Shown: positions 5,489-13,896 of the stretch, piece by piece
Numbering within the stretch: the stretch's first letter is position 1
How the letters are laid out: each line of letters opens with the position of its first letter
From: a virus
Virus genome (UHGV): UHGV-1775856
Direction: 5' to 3' (one strand)
Length of the DNA: 15,357 nucleotides
Notes under the pieces: model-generated
Database searches by the model: none
Told to the model about the DNA's origin: nothing
The model's input: the letters and a program-made list of their open reading frames with translations, nothing else
Position numbers and translations under genes: made by a program

Positions 5489-5517
5489 GAAAGTCAACAA
5501 GTGACTTTCAATAAAAT
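5489..5517 (+). promoter_or_regulatory. candidate promoter for the structural operon: perfect 8-bp inverted repeat GAAAGTCA-ACAAG-TGACTTTC followed by a -10-like ATAAAAT
   Basis: Arms at 5489-5496 and 5502-5509, then AATAAAAT at 5510-5517. P1 late promoters are reported to carry an inverted repeat centred near -22 plus a -10 element; I do not recall the exact consensus. Confidence 0.35.
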
Positions 5518-5568: not shown

Positions 5569-7275
5569 TTGAGTAACTTACGCGAATACCAGAATCGTAT
5601 TGCAGATATCGCAAAACGCTCTAAAGCTGTGCTTGGCTGGGCAAGCACTGCGCAGTTCGGTACTGATAACCAATTCATTAAAGATGATGCCGCGCGTGCC
5701 GCATCTATCCTTGAAGCTGCACGTAAAGACCCGGTTTTTGCGGGTATCTCTGATAATGCCACCGCTCAAATCGCTACAGCGTGGGCAAGTGCACTGGCTG
5801 ACTACGCCGCAGCACATAAATCTATGCCGCGTCCGGAAATTCTGGCCTCCTGCCACCAGACGCTGGAAAACTGCCTGATTGAGTCCACCCGCAATAGCAT
5901 GGATGCCACTAATAAAGCGATGCTGGAATCCGTCGCAGCAGAGATGATGAGCGTTTCTGACGGTGTTATGCGTCTGCCTTTATTCCTCGCGATGATCCTG
6001 CCTGTTCAGTTGGGGGCAGCTACCGCTGATGCGTGTACCTTCATTCCGGTTACGCGTGACCAGTCCGACATCTATGAAGTCTTTAACGTGGCAGGTTCCT
6101 CTTTTGGTTCTTATGCTGCTGGTGATGTTCTGGACATGCAATCCGTCGGTGTGTACAGCCAGTTACGCCGCCGCTATGTGCTGGTGGCAAGCTCCGATGG
6201 CACCAGCAAAACCGCAACCTTCAAGATGGAAGACTTCGAAGGCCAGAATGTACCAATCCGAAAAGGTCGCACTAATATCTACGTTAACCGTATTAAGTCT
6301 GTTGTTGATAACGGTTCCGGCAGCCTACTTCACTCGTTTACTAATGCTGCTGGTGAGCAAATCACTGTTACCTGCTCTCTGAACTACAACATTGGTCAGA
6401 TTGCCCTGTCGTTCTCCAAAGCGCCGGATAAAGGCACTGAGATCGCAATTGAGACGGAAATCAATATTGAAGCCGCTCCTGAGCTGATCCCGCTGATCAA
6501 CCACGAAATGAAGAAATACACCCTGTTCCCAAGCCAGTTCGTTATCGCGGCTGAGCACACGGTACAGGCGGCGTATGAAGCACAGCGTGAATTTGGTCTG
6601 GACCTGGGTTCCCTACAGTTCCGCACCCTGAAGGAATACCTGTCTCATGAACAGGATATGCTGCGTCTTCGCATCATGATCTGGCGTACTCTTGCGACCG
6701 ACACCTTTGACATCGCTCTGCCGGTTAACCAGTCCTTTGATGTATGGGCAACCATCATTCGTGGCAAATTCCAGACTGTATATCGCGACATTATTGAGCG
6801 CGTTAAATCTTCTGGTGCGATGGGGATGTTTGCTGGTGCTGATGCAGCATCTTTCTTCAAACAGTTGCCGAAGGATTTCTTCCAGCCAGCCGAAGACTAT
6901 ATCCAGACTCCGTATGTTCACTACATCGGTACCCTGTTCGGTAACGTGAAAGTGTACGAAGTACCTGCTGGTATTTGTAAGAACTTAACGACAGAGAACA
7001 TTCAGTTCAGCTCGATGGATGTGCTGTGCTACGTCCGTGATGAAAATCCGGGTAAAGCAGGCTTCGTGACTGGTGATGCTGTCCCGGCTATCCCGTTCCA
7101 GCATCCGACCACTCCGGCGCTGGTCAACCGTACCACACTGTGGGGTTCGGCTATCAACGATATGCACCCACGCAACGGCGCTGATTACTTCACTCGTGTA
7201 ACGCTGACAATGGCCAAAAAAGGCGGGCTTAACTTCATTAGCGGCGACACGATTGATGCCGGTGACTCTGAGTAA
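5569..7275 (+). CDS. large virion structural protein, possibly the major head protein (P1 gene 23 position); start assigned to TTG at 5569
   Basis: Long ORF (track 5548-7275) with no in-frame ATG near the 5' end; TTG at 5569 sits 6 nt after AAGGAAG. It is first in an operon with a sheath-like gene and is followed by a GC hairpin. The head assignment rests on position only. Confidence 0.7.
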   Translation: MSNLREYQNRIADIAKRSKAVLGWASTAQFGTDNQFIKDDAARAASILEAARKDPVFAGISDNATAQIATAWASALADYAAAHKSMPRPEILASCHQTLENCLIESTRNSMDATNKAMLESVAAEMMSVSDGVMRLPLFLAMILPVQLGAATADACTFIPVTRDQSDIYEVFNVAGSSFGSYAAGDVLDMQSVGVYSQLRRRYVLVASSDGTSKTATFKMEDFEGQNVPIRKGRTNIYVNRIKSVVDNGSGSLLHSFTNAAGEQITVTCSLNYNIGQIALSFSKAPDKGTEIAIETEINIEAAPELIPLINHEMKKYTLFPSQFVIAAEHTVQAAYEAQREFGLDLGSLQFRTLKEYLSHEQDMLRLRIMIWRTLATDTFDIALPVNQSFDVWATIIRGKFQTVYRDIIERVKSSGAMGMFAGADAASFFKQLPKDFFQPAEDYIQTPYVHYIGTLFGNVKVYEVPAGICKNLTTENIQFSSMDVLCYVRDENPGKAGFVTGDAVPAIPFQHPTTPALVNRTTLWGSAINDMHPRNGADYFTRVTLTMAKKGGLNFISGDTIDAGDSE

Positions 7276-7301
7276 TCAGGGGAAGTTCTCCGTTTAACAT
7301 A

Positions 7302-7320
7302 GCGCCCCCGTGCGGGGCGC
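7302..7320 (+). other. GC-rich hairpin with no U-tract between the 575-aa and 529-aa genes; possible partial terminator or mRNA stabiliser
   Basis: GCGCCCC (7302-7308), loop CGTGC, GGGGCGC (7314-7320). Confidence 0.35.
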
Positions 7321-7335
7321 ATAACAGGGAAAGTT

Positions 7336-8925
7336 ATGTCTCAATATTCAATTCAACAGTCATTAGGTAATGCATCCGGCGTCGCGGTTAGCCCGATCAA
7401 TGCCGATGCGACGTTATCTACCGGTGTTGCATTAAATAGCAGCTTGTGGGCTGGTATTGGCGTATTTGCGCGTGGCAAGCCGTTTACTGTTCTTGCGGTT
7501 ACTGAGTCCAATTACGAAGATGTTCTCGGCGAACCGCTGAAGCCGTCTTCCGGCTCACAGTTCGAACCAATTCGCCATGTATACGAAGCTATTCAGCAAA
7601 CATCTGGTTATGTTGTTCGCGCTGTTCCGGATGATGCGAAGTTCCCGATTATTATGTTCGATGAATCAGGCGAACCGGCTTACAGTGCGTTGCCATACGG
7701 TTCTGAAATTGAACTTGATAGTGGCGAAGCCTTTGCTATCTACGTTGATGATGGTGATCCGTGTATTTCACCTACCCGTGAGTTAACCATCGAAACGGCA
7801 ACAGCGGACAGCGCGGGTAATGAACGCTTCCTCTTAAAACTGACCCAGACGACTTCGCTCGGCGTGGTAACGACCCTGGAGACACACACTGTGTCTTTGG
7901 CGGAAGAAGCGAAAGATGACATGGGCCGCTTGTGTTATCTGCCTACGGCTCTGGAAGCCCGTTCTAAATATCTGCGCGCGGTTGTTAATGAAGAGCTGAT
8001 TTCGACAGCGAAAGTAACAAACAAAAAATCGTTGGCGTTCACTGGCGGTACCAACGGCGATCAGTCGAAAATCTCAACCGCTGCGTACCTGCGTGCGGTG
8101 AAAGTGCTGAACAATGCGCCGTACATGTACACCGTTGTTCTCGGCCTGGGGTGCTATGACAATGCGGCGATCACTGCGTTAGGTAATATCTGTTCTGATC
8201 GCCTGATTGATGGCTTCTTTGATGTCAAACCGACATTGACGTACACGGAAGCGATCTCTGCTGTTGAAGATACCGGTTTACTTGGTACCGATTATGTAAG
8301 CTGTGCTGTCTATCATTTCCCGTTCTCCTGCAAAGACAAATGGACCCAATCCCGCGTGGTCTTCGGTCTGTCTGGCGCGGCGTATGCGGCGAAAGCTCGT
8401 GGCGTCAAGAAAAACTCCGATGTCGGCGGTTGGCATTACTCACCGGCTGGTGAAGAACGTGCCGTCATAGCTCGTGCATCACTTCAGCCGCTGTATCCTG
8501 AAGACACCCCGGACGAAGAAGCTATGGTCAAGGGCCGACTCAATAAAGTATCTGTAGGTACTTCGGGCCAGATGATCATCGATGATGCTTTAACTTGCTG
8601 CACGCAGGACAACTATCTGCATTTCCAGCACGTCCCATCCCTGATGAACGCAATCAGCCGTTTCTTTGTCCAGTTAGCCCGACAGATGAAGCATAACCCG
8701 GACGGCATTACTGAGTCTGGCCTGACTAAAGGGATGACCAAACTTTTGGATCGCTTTGTCGCCTCCGGCGCTCTGGTGGCTCCTCGTGATCCTGATGCTG
8801 ACGGTACAGAACCGTATGTGCTGAAAGTTACGCAGGCGGAATTCGATAAATGGGAAGTAGTCTGGGCCTGCTGCCCGACTGGCGTAGCCCGTCGTATCCA
8901 GGGCGTACCGCTGCTTATTAAGTAA
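7336..8925 (+). CDS. contractile tail sheath-like protein
   Basis: 529 aa; AGGGAAAG Shine-Dalgarno. The segment AAYAAKARGVKKNSDVGGWHYSPAG resembles the recalled P2 FI sheath segment (ARALGLRAKIDQEQGWHKT), and the C-terminal region has sheath-like hydrophobic periodicity; the size fits a sheath subunit. Confidence 0.7.
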   Translation: MSQYSIQQSLGNASGVAVSPINADATLSTGVALNSSLWAGIGVFARGKPFTVLAVTESNYEDVLGEPLKPSSGSQFEPIRHVYEAIQQTSGYVVRAVPDDAKFPIIMFDESGEPAYSALPYGSEIELDSGEAFAIYVDDGDPCISPTRELTIETATADSAGNERFLLKLTQTTSLGVVTTLETHTVSLAEEAKDDMGRLCYLPTALEARSKYLRAVVNEELISTAKVTNKKSLAFTGGTNGDQSKISTAAYLRAVKVLNNAPYMYTVVLGLGCYDNAAITALGNICSDRLIDGFFDVKPTLTYTEAISAVEDTGLLGTDYVSCAVYHFPFSCKDKWTQSRVVFGLSGAAYAAKARGVKKNSDVGGWHYSPAGEERAVIARASLQPLYPEDTPDEEAMVKGRLNKVSVGTSGQMIIDDALTCCTQDNYLHFQHVPSLMNAISRFFVQLARQMKHNPDGITESGLTKGMTKLLDRFVASGALVAPRDPDADGTEPYVLKVTQAEFDKWEVVWACCPTGVARRIQGVPLLIK

Positions 8926-10378: not shown

Positions 10379-10888
10379 ATGGGGCACAATAATACTAAGG
10401 GAAACCGTAAATTTATTAAGGGCCGCTATACTGCCAACGCGGCCAAAGGCGAACGACTGGTATCTTCTGAATTCCAGCTCACTTTTGCAGGCCATGAAGA
10501 TATCAGCGTACTGGTTCGCACGTCGCAAATTCCTGAAATGACCCGCGAGGATGTGGAGGACTATGGTCCGAATGGTGTGAAGTTCAACCAGCACGGTCCA
10601 ATTCGAAACTCTGGGGAAATCCAGGTCCAGTGCGTGGAGACTATCGAAGGCGATATTCTTCAGTTCATTAAAGATCGCATTGCGGCGAAGGACTATGTTG
10701 ATATCACGATGGCTGCGACCCCTGAATCCAAATCTTCCGGGGTTAACGCTGTGACAAAAGCTGCTACAACAATTGAAATGTTGGACTGCAAAATCTACAG
10801 TGATGCAATCGACTTTAGTACCGAAGATGTGACTGCTGCTGTGCGCCCGTCACTTCGTATCGTCTACAACTGGATTGAGTGGGATTAA
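10379..10888 (+). CDS. hypothetical protein, possible tail tube or baseplate component
   Basis: 169 aa; AAGGA Shine-Dalgarno 6 nt before the ATG; last gene before a strong terminator; the size is typical of contractile-tail tube or baseplate subunits. Confidence 0.7.
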   Translation: MGHNNTKGNRKFIKGRYTANAAKGERLVSSEFQLTFAGHEDISVLVRTSQIPEMTREDVEDYGPNGVKFNQHGPIRNSGEIQVQCVETIEGDILQFIKDRIAAKDYVDITMAATPESKSSGVNAVTKAATTIEMLDCKIYSDAIDFSTEDVTAAVRPSLRIVYNWIEWD

Positions 10889-10906
10889 GAGTCATCCCTT
10901 GTATTT

Positions 10907-10931
10907 TAAAGCTCCTTCGGGAGCTTTTTTT
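10907..10931 (+). terminator. rho-independent terminator closing the structural operon
   Basis: AAAGCTCC (10908-10915), loop TTCG, GGAGCTTT, then a run of seven T. Confidence 0.75.
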
Positions 10932-10991
10932 ATAACTATTTTATATAAACATGCATCGATAACATTGTCTGGAGTTTTATGTTAGATTATT

Positions 10992-11008
10992 AATGTTCTA
11001 ATAAACTA
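10992..11008 (+). promoter_or_regulatory. C1-repressor-operator-like site upstream of the 210-aa gene
   Basis: AATGTTCTAATAAACTA matches the P1 C1 operator consensus ATTGCTCTAATAAATTT at 13 of 17 positions, including the CTAATAAA core, inside an AT-rich promoter-like region. Confidence 0.35.
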
Positions 11009-11059
11009 CAATTATTGAGGTAGATGTTTGTGCCTGTACTGTTAAAGGGGGACTCTAAA

Positions 11060-11656
11060 ATGGCTGTGATTCCAATGTCGTACTCCCCGGGTACTGTCGC
11101 TCGTCGATTTTCGATCCTGGACGGAGTTACCATCCAGGGTGTGCTTTACCAGGTTATATGGGATTCCAAAACCCCATTTGCAGCTGTAATAGAGGCTGCG
11201 CCTTCTATTATCGATGGTGATATGCGCCATAAGGTTGTCGCTACTCTTGAACTTCAACGTCGCCCGCAGCTTGAAGGCGTACTGGTAAGGAAGTTCTGGG
11301 AGGATAGCGATGTTGCCCAGATTGAAGGTATCGTGGTTGATGGAACCGTCCGGGATGTCGGTTTAGCTACTTTTGTTTACGAAACCGTAGCCTCAAAAGC
11401 TGGTGTTGTTTTGCTCAGTGATAATGAGCAATACGAAGGTGGAAAAGCTCTTTGGCAACACATCGCCCGTCGCTCTTCCGAGCTAAAAGTGTTTATCCTT
11501 GACACCGATGCCGCTCAGTATTACCCGTTTGACGGCGAACGTGTTTGCTATGACGGGGTAAGTATTCCTGAATCCGAGATATGGAGTGAACACCCAGATC
11601 GAAGTAAGCATGGGGTTGTTCTGGTCGCTGAATCCATAATTGGAAATGCGGCATAG
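11060..11656 (+). CDS. hypothetical protein, about 200 aa, function unknown; likely C1-controlled
   Basis: ORF track 11024-11656. ATG at 11060 has AAGGGGG about 9 nt upstream; the ATG at 11024 has GAGGT only 3 nt upstream. It has its own promoter region after the operon terminator. Confidence 0.65.
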   Translation: MAVIPMSYSPGTVARRFSILDGVTIQGVLYQVIWDSKTPFAAVIEAAPSIIDGDMRHKVVATLELQRRPQLEGVLVRKFWEDSDVAQIEGIVVDGTVRDVGLATFVYETVASKAGVVLLSDNEQYEGGKALWQHIARRSSELKVFILDTDAAQYYPFDGERVCYDGVSIPESEIWSEHPDRSKHGVVLVAESIIGNAA

Positions 11657-11838
11657 CAGTAAAAAATTCCTTGCTCCTTAAAAGGGGAGAGGGTTAATCT
11701 ACGTATGCTAAGCATAGAGATGGCCTCAGATTAATGTTAAGCGTCTTGCAGGACGCGTAATGTTATCTGGGGCGTTCTTCTATCTGCTTTTCGGGTAATG
11801 CCTGAAGCAGATAGCCTCAAGCACCCGTAACGATTGTA

Positions 11839-12165
11839 TCAATGTCTGGCTTTTTTTCTATAGAAATCACCAGGAAGGGTGAATATCCACATCAGAAGAA
11901 ATGTTGCAGCAAACATGATCCCTAATGGCCAGACCGCGCCAAAGAAAATCCATACTAAGATCTCCTCTGTTCGTTCTTTGCGGTCGATATCGACAAGCAT
12001 TCTTCGGCTGATCATGTATACACAGAAGCCAATACAAACATATCCTGCAAAAGCGATCGCTAACTGTAAAAAATCAGATTGCCTCTCCGACCTCAAACTG
12101 AAAACGCCAGGTGACTCCAGATTAGAGCAATCTATCACCCTCTGAATCCTGCCGGTATACCCCAT
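11839..12165 (-). CDS. possible small membrane protein with two hydrophobic helices, overlapping the 3' end of repL
   Basis: Two hydrophobic segments (LAIAFAGYVCIGFCVYMI and ILVWIFFGAVWPLGIMFAATFLLMWIF); no convincing Shine-Dalgarno at any candidate start (12165, 12015 or 12000); the position matches where P1 has the small rlf genes downstream of repL, by recollection. Confidence 0.3.
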   Translation of the reverse strand: MGYTGRIQRVIDCSNLESPGVFSLRSERQSDFLQLAIAFAGYVCIGFCVYMISRRMLVDIDRKERTEEILVWIFFGAVWPLGIMFAATFLLMWIFTLPGDFYRKKARH

Positions 12166-12980
12166 TGTTCGTTATCTTTATTTTTGGCTAAAACCGCATT
12201 AAGAGCTTCGTTTACCGTCATGCAATGCGGCAGATTATCGAAGTTTGATACACCGCCAATATCAGGAGAACGCTTGTTCTTCAGGTAAGCATATTTCCGC
12301 GCTGCCGCCTCTACTTTCTGCTTGAACTCATGTTTTTGAGCGCGTTTTTTGGATAACCGCAGATTGTCAGCCTTTGTTTTTGCCTCAGCGATCCATGAAG
12401 TCAATTTTTTGAGTCTGGTCGTTCCGGCACCGCCGGAAACTGATCTTTTTGTTTTTTTAACTTGTGACTTCTTATTCTTTATTGCCACGTCATCCTGACA
12501 GGGGGAGGGGGTATCATTTTGACATGGGGGTGTGGATAAAAAATTAAATAAAGCCAATGTCTTAGCGAGAACAGCTTTAACCTTGGTTGCCGCTGAAGAG
12601 ATCTTTAATTTGCTTTCAATCAGCGCATTTTTGGCTTGTTGTGCGAAGGCCAAAAAGGATGGTGTAAACCGGTACAGGTTAGCGCGACGTTCACGGTGAT
12701 CGCCGATAACAATCTCTACAGACAGAATTCCTTTGTTTACAGCTTCACGGAATGCACGAACGACGGTTGATTGGCTATAACCAGTTTCTGCCGCGATCAG
12801 GCGGTGAGGCTTGTGAATGAAGTATTCACTGGTTGTTGCCGCTAGATTTGCACATTGCGACAGGATATGCCCGGCGCTACGGGATAGACCGGAGTGTGTT
12901 ACAAAGCAGGCCAATTCATAGCCAGAAAAAGTAAAATCGCTCATCGTTATACAGCTCAGGAAAGTGACTTTAGCCAGCAT
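12135..12980 (-). CDS. repL: lytic replication protein RepL
   Basis: 281 aa, directly downstream of kilA in the same orientation and under a C1 operator, as in the P1 lytic replicon; the RepL length matches my recollection; the N-terminal third looks like a winged-helix domain. Confidence 0.8.
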   Translation of the reverse strand: MLAKVTFLSCITMSDFTFSGYELACFVTHSGLSRSAGHILSQCANLAATTSEYFIHKPHRLIAAETGYSQSTVVRAFREAVNKGILSVEIVIGDHRERRANLYRFTPSFLAFAQQAKNALIESKLKISSAATKVKAVLAKTLALFNFLSTPPCQNDTPSPCQDDVAIKNKKSQVKKTKRSVSGGAGTTRLKKLTSWIAEAKTKADNLRLSKKRAQKHEFKQKVEAAARKYAYLKNKRSPDIGGVSNFDNLPHCMTVNEALNAVLAKNKDNEQWGIPAGFRG

Positions 12981-13009: not shown

Positions 13010-13810
13010 TTAGCGCGTTGCCGCGACAGGTACCAGCACACCAGCATCAAGCAATCGCTTCATCAGCCACTGCTGACCTTTGCCGGTTATACGAGTCGTG
13101 AAAGAAATCCTGCTTCCATTGCTTGTATCGATCACGGTTTCTTTAAGGGTGAAATACCCACGGGATATGTATTCTTGTTTGGGGACGTTCCTGCGTTCAC
13201 CGGTTGCGATCAGAATTCCGTTATCACGCAACCAGGTGAAGAGATAGTTTTGGCCCAGGCCGAGCACTTTGGCATAGTTGCCGATTAGAACCCCGCTGGC
13301 GGTAGCAACGCGTTCGGCGAATTCGACTTTAGGTGCATCCATCAGCATTTTTTGCTCCAGCCGTTGCTTTTGCTCTGCCAGGTCAGCAGCCAAACGGAGA
13401 GCTTCTGGGAGGCTCTTCGGAATAGCAGGTTGTAATCTTCCGGCTCGATAGTCGATAAATGTCTGGTTTACCTTCAGCCGAAACGCGGGAGAAATCCAGC
13501 CTGCGTACTCCACTGCGAGCAATTCATGGGCAAAAGTGCCGCCGCCACGGCCTTCGAACGAAACTATGCAATTCTGCATAGTTTCTTTTTCAAGCTCTTC
13601 GATGAGCTGTTTGGCTGACAGCGTTCTTAGCCATTGAGCTGGCGCTTTATGGGCACCGAGTCCGCTCGCTCTGTGTAGAGCATTAAGGTTGTAACGGCCA
13701 GCGCGGTCGGTCGTAATTTCAACACCACAAATAACGGGCAGAGTGGTTGAAGGATCGACATTTTGATGAAGGTTTGATATATTCATATCCGCATTGAATG
13801 TTTGTTGCAT
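13010..13810 (-). CDS. kilA: KilA (KilA-N domain at the N-terminus, KilAC domain at the C-terminus)
   Basis: 266 aa, the P1 KilA length as I recall it; GGAG Shine-Dalgarno 6 nt before the ATG at 13810; the C-terminal ~130 aa are clearly paralogous to the C-terminus of the upstream ant gene. Confidence 0.85.
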   Translation of the reverse strand: MQQTFNADMNISNLHQNVDPSTTLPVICGVEITTDRAGRYNLNALHRASGLGAHKAPAQWLRTLSAKQLIEELEKETMQNCIVSFEGRGGGTFAHELLAVEYAGWISPAFRLKVNQTFIDYRAGRLQPAIPKSLPEALRLAADLAEQKQRLEQKMLMDAPKVEFAERVATASGVLIGNYAKVLGLGQNYLFTWLRDNGILIATGERRNVPKQEYISRGYFTLKETVIDTSNGSRISFTTRITGKGQQWLMKRLLDAGVLVPVAATR

Positions 13811-13879: not shown

Positions 13880-13896
13880 AAATTTATTAGAGCAAA
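13880..13896 (-). promoter_or_regulatory. C1 repressor operator (Op53-like) in the kilA-repL promoter region
   Basis: The minus strand reads TTTGCTCTAATAAATTT, a 16 of 17 match to the P1 C1 operator consensus ATTGCTCTAATAAATTT, about 70 bp upstream of the kilA start. Three GATC sites lie just upstream at 13909-13931. Confidence 0.65.

Follow-up and report, generated by a model that had tools for sequence, protein, structure and literature searches.

The gene at positions 11030–11656 (+) of UHGV virus genome UHGV-1775856, of which one stretch of 15,357 nt (the window) was analysed, is intact and under selection, and its product is predicted to be a divergent member of the Gcn5-related N-acyltransferase (GNAT) fold. 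It lies in a 761-bp segment that replaces a hok open reading frame (ORF), and the mobile part consists of the ORF with a leader of about 25 nt. We favour, with a probability of roughly 0.6, the reading that this is an accessory GNAT-fold acyltransferase gene carried as cargo at a P1 swap-site, with its own transcription, expression in the prophage and at most weak damping by C1 together with Lxc. ORF content and database matches identified the window as a segment of a P1-like (Punavirus) phage-plasmid. They also bear out an earlier reading made from the letters alone (the sequence-only reading), which had placed the gene between the structural operon and the lytic replicon; the cassette locus is the interval between bplB and repL.

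Reading frame and protein fold

The ORF, which runs from a GTG start to a TAG stop and encodes 208 aa, was intact in 29 of 29 P1-like loci. The ratio of nonsynonymous to synonymous polymorphism (pN/pS) was about 0.09 (0.08–0.11 against the P1-like and P4-like alleles), indicating strong purifying selection. In every record seen, the gene is labelled 'hypothetical protein'.

An intact ORF of 200–210 aa with a Shine–Dalgarno (SD) sequence had been expected and was found, with a start that is probably GTG 11030 rather than the listed ATG 11024. The latter (210 aa) is only 3 nt after the GAGG at 11017–11020 and reads CTG in one of the 29 related loci. GTG 11030 has the same GAGG as its SD sequence and is equivalent to the ATG of homologs beginning MPVLLKGDS; the ten codons that follow from it appear to be translated, since the differences between lineages are mostly synonymous there. 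A third start, ATG 11060 (198 aa), is preceded by the strong SD box AAGGGGGA at 11045–11052 and is the sole possible start in the Escherichia coli chromosomal allele P0095, which has an in-frame stop just upstream. On these features, GTG 11030 is most likely the main start and ATG 11060 a viable alternative.

The profile and structure search proposed in the sequence-only reading, which had seen no recognisable motif in the protein, overturned that part of it. An AlphaFold (AF2) model built on 123 family members had a predicted local distance difference test score (pLDDT) of 90.6 and a predicted template modelling score (pTM) of 0.87, and its structural matches were to GNAT acetyltransferases only. 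Foldseek against the PDB returned Naa60, HAT1 and NatD with probabilities of 0.96–1.0, and among the viral models of BFVD the best matches were uncharacterised phage proteins, several of them labelled NAT_SF. The model has the mixed beta-sheet, the V-shaped opening between beta4 and beta5, and the alpha3 and alpha4 helices expected of the fold. The motif A sequence Q/R-x-x-G-x-G/A that follows beta4 is present as R108-D-V-G111-L-A113, a pyrophosphate-binding motif of the form R-x-x-G-x-A. A113 is invariant in a 17-member alignment, and R/Q and G are retained in most members. According to this model, the protein is thus a divergent member of the GNAT fold.

Sequence comparisons were consistent with a distant relationship, the curated sequence models remaining below threshold. 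The beta4–alpha3 region is where the weak sequence matches to Pfam and PDB are located, and weak matches to Acetyltransf_1 on the same motif were obtained for 17 of the 123 members (best member E = 6e-4). Some family members are named N-acetyltransferase by UniRef, NCBI or IMG. NCBIfam gave no match for the protein and the PADLOC models of known anti-phage defence systems none even at E <= 10, while the PHROG match was to PHROG 7522, to which no function is assigned there. When the family was aligned by hhalign with a RimJ-like bona fide GNAT neighbour, the probability was 0.8 % and the motif A region alone was aligned.

The nearest solved structures in the GNAT superfamily are Hat1, Naa40/NatD, Naa60, ESCO1 and arylalkylamine N-acetyltransferases, at about 10 % identity. 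The protein differs from these in an additional beta-rich N-terminal part, in a 40-residue C-terminal loop region and in a signature of its own, S130-D131-x-x-Q-Y-x-G-G-K-x-L-W, which, with Y174 and W185 of the loop region, is invariant or nearly so in the family. The family comprised 157 close matches and 265 representatives (E <= 0.001, library clustered at 50 % identity), nearly all of about 200 aa. A role as a DNA mimic was considered and set aside: close relatives are acidic, with an isoelectric point (pI) of about 4.9, yet the family median is 5.8 with a wide range.

Cargo site, distribution and relatives

In reference P1 the interval between bplB and repL holds rlfA, rlfB and pmgF, which together form variable region 5, a highly variable part of P1-like phage-plasmids (PMC9603915, PMC6906374). 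Collinearity of the window with the P1 variant MH422554 extends to 10930 and resumes at 11692. The intervening 761-bp segment (10931–11691), specific to a P1 sub-lineage, takes the place of 264 bp which in MH422554 include an intact hok ORF. The corresponding BLAST boundaries pair window 10800–10930 with L003 2921–3051 and window 11692–12300 with L003 3316–3924.

At this site MH422554 has an intact hok/sok module. The window retains a hok mRNA leader/sok remnant lacking the hok ORF at 11652–11826 (−), which matched the Rfam sok model RF01794 at 82.5 bits (gathering score 59). These 175 nt are 98 % identical to the MH422554 module, and an alignment with the intact hok locus breaks down immediately 5′ of the hok ATG. 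The retained hok ATG, on the − strand, shares positions with the TAG that ends the GNAT-like ORF, and the ORF that follows this ATG is antisense to the GNAT-like gene and not Hok-like. The locus therefore shares its leader with hok/sok type I modules and differs from them in having lost the hok ORF, in whose place stands a GNAT-like gene of opposite orientation. Any remaining activity of the hok promoter would produce a transcript that enters the 3′ end of the GNAT-like gene in antisense.

A second remnant was found at the right edge of the variable region, where the Orlf (Op55) operator is half-retained as ATTGCTCTAATCTGGAG at 12115–12131 (−), just after the repL stop. It agrees with P1 Orlf over the first 11 bases, and the remainder has been replaced, leaving a score of 5.2 bits with the operator matrix described below; homology to reference P1 resumes at 12121.

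The cassette was present in 125 of 603 P1-like plasmids, about a fifth, the 603 being those with the bplB terminator. The gene was found in 127 of 5426 complete E. coli genomes (~2 %), nearly always on a plasmid of about 95–100 kb. It is thus variably present at a fixed site and occurs in unrelated elements as well. Of the relatives elsewhere, those in P4-like islands (86–88 % identity) directly follow the integrase. In a distant 90-kb P1-like element, a homolog with 72 % identity is inserted in the dar operon, with ddrA on one side and ddrB on the other and a terminator-like hairpin ahead of it (L007/L055, 5001–5636; L053, 2599–3234). One lambdoid prophage ends with a 68 % homolog that is convergent with int and xis. 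Other relatives, about 50 % identical, are carried singly on chromosomes, in the order rsmI-[gene]-aga in 12 genomes of Buttiauxella, Cedecea, Dryocola and related organisms, and Pantoea relatives, also about 50 % identical, are adjacent to a pair of extracytoplasmic function (ECF) sigma and anti-sigma genes. A scan of viral contigs with the 17-sequence family alignment detected a 28 % relative on a 110-kb contig, located after the gene of an NAD-dependent DNA ligase.

No partner gene recurred across these contexts, and both upstream and downstream DNA differed in each. Since flanks and neighbours change with context, the travelling unit is the ORF with its leader of about 25 nt, the rest being supplied by the host element. 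This arrangement resembles that of phage morons and of the cargo in P1 variable regions, in which a single gene likewise lies between two operons with a terminator ahead, occurs in some relatives only and is shared with unrelated elements. It differs from phage morons in that the promoter here is a predicted one and that terminator scan and folding revealed no intrinsic terminator downstream that would belong to the gene.

In the P4-like islands the gene order is int, the GNAT homolog, a protein of 534–568 aa, alpA and DUF3987. The gene of the 534–568-aa protein, at about 5700–7400 (−) in L046, L047, L050, L051 and L062, is always convergent with the GNAT homolog there. It was considered as a partner gene and rejected, having no Pfam or PADLOC match and being absent from the phage collection and from P1-like plasmids; a cargo or defence gene in its own right is one possibility.

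The remaining genes of the window are arranged as follows. On the + strand are a Rep3-type repA, a T5orf172-domain ORF, parA, parB, gene 23, gene 22 (7336–8925), gene 21, pmgG and bplB (10379–10888), and on the − strand are repL (12135–12980), kilA (13010–13810) and ant1. The T5orf172-domain ORF (269 aa, 2151–2960, +) lies between the Rep3-type repA and parA, a stretch that in reference P1 holds the incA iterons only. At 11839–12084 (−), a small hydrophobic ORF of 81 aa is annotated in related plasmids. Its ATG reads AGG in the window (GGAGAGGCAATC, compared with GGAGATGCAATC in MH422554), leaving it readable only from ATG 12165 inside repL (108 aa), or else inactive.

Transcription and the C1-operator-like 17-mer

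The strong terminator, the A+T-rich region behind it and the gene as a separate unit, as described in the sequence-only reading, were all recovered, its own promoter as a prediction. The intrinsic terminator at 10908–10934 (+), AAAGCUCC-UUCG-GGAGCUUU followed by U7, closes the late structural operon 23-22-21-pmgG-bplB. By terminator scan, it consists of an 8-bp stem with a UUCG loop (10908–10927) and seven T, and its folding energy of −12.5 kcal/mol (z = −4.2) was reached by none of 200 shuffles. The same bplB terminator is common to the 603 P1-like plasmids. The spacer that follows (10931–11029, 99 nt) is 77 % A+T, and the gene has its own ribosome-binding site behind a conserved leader.

The upstream part of the spacer (10931–11003, +), the presumed promoter region, is specific to the P1 context, having no similarity to the DNA upstream of homologs elsewhere; in the phage collection it was found only together with the cassette, in RCS47, SJ46 and 673R5. 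Derivation of the spacer from a P1 operator region was also considered, and no homology was found, the best match being 14 of 15 bases to Oc4 with dissimilar flanks. The leader from about 11004 is the sole non-coding sequence in common with homologs in other elements.

Across the 29 P1-like loci a block of 45 nt (10972–11016) was invariant, with 8–10 % of the neighbouring columns variable. This block holds two candidate promoter elements. The first is a putative extended −10 element, TGTTAGATT (TGnTAGATT), at 10980–10988 (+), recognised from the sequence and invariant in the 29 loci. The second is a candidate −10 hexamer, TACAAT, at 11007–11012 (+), suggested by alignments of leader DNA across contexts. 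The hexamer travels with the gene, reading TATAAT in P4-like islands and TACTAT in the dar-operon context. Among the P1-like carriers the spacer differs by at most 3 %, whereas synonymous sites of the gene (11030–11656) differ by up to 19 %. This contrast suggests either that the gene body swaps alleles independently of the P1-specific upstream DNA or that the spacer is constrained.

The sequence-only reading had proposed possible C1 control of this gene by way of a 17-mer in the spacer. If the 17-mer is a working C1 operator, the gene would be silent in the plasmid prophage and switched on at induction, with an early lytic or host-takeover function. The 17-mer, AATGTTCTAATAAACTA at 10992–11008 (+), is present and agrees with the C1 operator consensus ATTGCTCTAATAAATTT, which is also given in PMC8546580, at 13 of 17 positions. 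Weight-matrix scoring against known operators, named in the same reading as a check, told against the site. With a matrix made from the P1 record AF234172, in which 20 monovalent C1 operators are annotated, it scored 13.0 bits, below all stand-alone annotated operators (14.5 bits for Oc1c to 27.2 bits). Among annotated operators Oc1b alone, which is half of a bivalent operator, scored lower. As a positive control within the window, the genuine operator Op53/OrepL upstream of kilA-repL (13880–13896, −; TTTGCTCTAATAAATTT, one mismatch) scored 23.7 bits and was identical to the annotated P1 OrepL. The 17-mer was the second-best match to the matrix in the window.

The 17-mer has two bases unseen at their positions in any of the 20 annotated sites. 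Position 5 of the 17-mer is T, where annotated sites have C in 19 of 20 cases and A in one, and position 15 is C, where they have T in 18 and A in two; the mismatches at positions 2 and 17 do occur in real operators. The T at position 5 breaks the left half T3 G4 C5. C7 T8 A9 A10 T11, of which the remaining core is intact. The weak annotated operators (Orlf, Oc1c and OpmgRb) all retain this left half, ATTGCTCTAA.

By chance alone, a score of 13 bits was reached in 98 of 5000 trials in which the 99-nt spacer was shuffled with its dinucleotides preserved (p ~0.02). In P1 and in loci unrelated to it, the frequency of unannotated matches of at least 13 bits was about 1.2–1.6e-5 per position, corresponding to about 0.4 expected chance matches somewhere in the 15-kb window. 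From the shuffle rate and the background rate, the 17-mer stands only marginally above chance. The site is thus a borderline match, suggestive in position and unconvincing in sequence.

Conservation and position gave a similarly mixed picture. The 17-mer was invariant in all 29 P1-like loci that carry the gene. This is uninformative by itself, since with 8–10 % of columns variable, 17 invariant positions would be expected 17 % of the time. Nor can the conservation be assigned to an operator, because the plausible promoter elements all lie within the same invariant block. The DNA upstream of 11004, including the first 12–13 bases of the 17-mer and hence its core, is found only in the cassette-bearing P1 sub-lineage, as would suit a C1-controlled site. 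The last 4–5 bases are part of the leader that accompanies the gene into non-P1 elements, and the 17-mer therefore straddles the junction of the two, which counts against it as an operator. In homologs from dar, lambdoid, P4-like and chromosomal contexts, the upstream DNA was unrelated and, close to the gene, gave no score of 10 bits or more with the matrix, a result that says nothing either way on function in P1.

The geometry would be compatible with repression. The 17-mer lies 3 nt beyond the candidate TGTTAGATT and shares bases with the candidate TACAAT, and a protein bound at 10992–11008 would occlude either −10, as at Ossb and OrepL of P1, which take comparable positions. The locus itself also offers a precedent, as the reference-P1 cargo rlfA/rlfB is preceded by the operator Orlf. 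The two units share the bplB–repL slot and have a C1-like 17-mer near the start of the cargo, where promoter occlusion is geometrically possible. They differ in cargo and strand, in the score of the 17-mer (13.0 bits, compared with 17.4 for Orlf) and in the broken ATTGCTCTAA, and the true Orlf is half-deleted in the window. In addition, Lxc strengthens C1 binding at operators (PMC8546580).

Comparable matches also arise outside P1. In the P4-like E. coli island L050, unrelated to P1, C1-operator-like matches were found at 6420–6436 (21.0 bits), 7086–7102 (15.1 bits) and 2791–2807 (15.3 bits). Two of the three are inside the 534-aa gene (38.5 % G+C), where 0.02 were expected from shuffles of that gene; read on the other strand, the near-consensus 21-bit site codes for LNKLVQY, and one match of this strength over all sequence scanned is about the chance level. 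A 21-bit match inside an unrelated coding gene diminishes the weight that can be given to a 13-bit one.

The proposed early lytic or host-takeover role was weakened, because relatives of the gene sit beside integrases and at fixed chromosomal sites, where they would be expressed without any C1. C1 control as such fared unevenly: the invariance of the site and its overlap with the candidate −10 elements are in keeping with it, and the sub-threshold score and the unseen bases at positions 5 and 15 are not. Overall, induction through a working operator at 10992–11008 is possible but doubtful. Were the 17-mer to bind C1, it would extend the sequence space tolerated in operators, a modest gain.

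Possible functions of the cargo gene

In the favoured reading, the cassette would be a self-contained, 'moron-like' accessory gene in a known swap-site, insulated from late transcription. It would be transcribed from a weak sigma-70 promoter of its own within 10931–11029, and its expression would be largely independent of the lytic programme and would include the plasmid prophage. Expression in the prophage is expected because relatives are located where C1 is absent and because the 17-mer is sub-threshold. C1 with Lxc could dampen expression through the 17-mer, as weak modulation at most, unlike the tight off/on control of early operons. The protein would transfer an acyl group from acyl-CoA to an amine, either of a protein or of a small molecule.

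Several observations weigh against this reading. No sigma-70 promoter reached threshold on the + strand in a consensus scan, so that the case for an own promoter is made by the terminator and the conservation. The ~2 % shuffle probability, with the invariant 45-nt block, leaves room for a real weak operator. On the protein side, the Pfam Acetyltransf_1 match of 14 bits is below the gathering threshold of 20.7, and the PDB profile match, to arylalkylamine N-acetyltransferase, was not significant (E = 0.085). Acyl transfer from acyl-CoA is deduced from the fold and motif.

The substrate could also be a toxic small molecule. In that case the gene would encode a protective, detoxifying or immunity acetyltransferase that acts against an antibiotic, a bacteriocin or a similar compound and benefits the lysogen. 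One homolog abuts a cluster of a C39-peptidase ATP-binding cassette (ABC) exporter and a glycosyltransferase, homologs persist as stable single chromosomal genes in several genera, and variable regions of P1-like elements often bear resistance cargo (PMC9603915). Against this, NCBIfam had no match, and the plasmid rows seen give only 'hypothetical protein', though the PLSDB table lists predicted resistance genes too. In structure the protein comes closest to acetyltransferases of protein N-termini or lysines, and the lack of a recurrent partner gene is likewise unfavourable, which together make a detoxifying role unlikely.

A broader proposal is that the ~200-aa proteins, with 265 clusters at 50 % identity, form a mobile GNAT-like family of defence or counter-defence that is exchanged among phages, satellites and phage-plasmids and is rewired in each element, in P1 by a degenerate C1 operator that would couple it to induction. 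Small phage-borne GNAT-fold proteins are known from phage–host conflict, such as Mom of phage Mu (tRNA-dependent DNA adenine modification) and Rac of phiKMV, and AcrVA5 is an anti-CRISPR phage GNAT enzyme. The present family resembles them in having one homolog within an anti-restriction (dar) operon. In its full form, including the coupling to induction, we regard this proposal as quite improbable.

The orientation of the gene, shared with the late structural operon, and the homolog between ddrA and ddrB might instead indicate late expression, by read-through or a late signal, of a Dar-like anti-restriction or counter-defence factor acting in infection. A strong terminator stands ahead of the gene in the window, as does a terminator-like hairpin in the dar context. 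A scan with the Lpa −22 consensus AAGTGACTT, built from 11 annotated P1 late promoters, located the late promoter LP23 of the window at 5499 and no Lpa −22 box upstream of the gene. In the structural comparison, Mom ranked far below generic GNATs, and its helix-turn-helix (HTH)-like insertion, required for activity, has no helical counterpart in the model. The protein is also acidic (pI 4.9) and ill-suited to nucleic-acid binding, and late, Dar-like action is accordingly very unlikely. A GNAT-type toxin of a TacT/AtaT-like toxin–antitoxin addiction module, as a successor to hok, is extremely improbable, as neither the 99-nt upstream nor the 35-nt downstream spacer holds an antitoxin ORF, the hok leader cannot control a gene inverted relative to it, and homologs are solitary in all contexts, stable chromosomal sites included.

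The fold family, the variable site and the repressor system are already known. What is new is the GNAT assignment of a widespread 'hypothetical protein', the signature and distribution of its family, and the anatomy of a swap that removed hok. The locus shows how an exchange of cargo disarmed a hok/sok module and half-deleted Orlf. The predicted GNAT fold yields a concrete hypothesis, acyl-CoA-dependent acylation, with a short list of residues, and the placement of the gene at a recombination hot-spot, beside the integrase of P4-like islands and in a dar operon fits a role in phage–host or phage–phage conflict.

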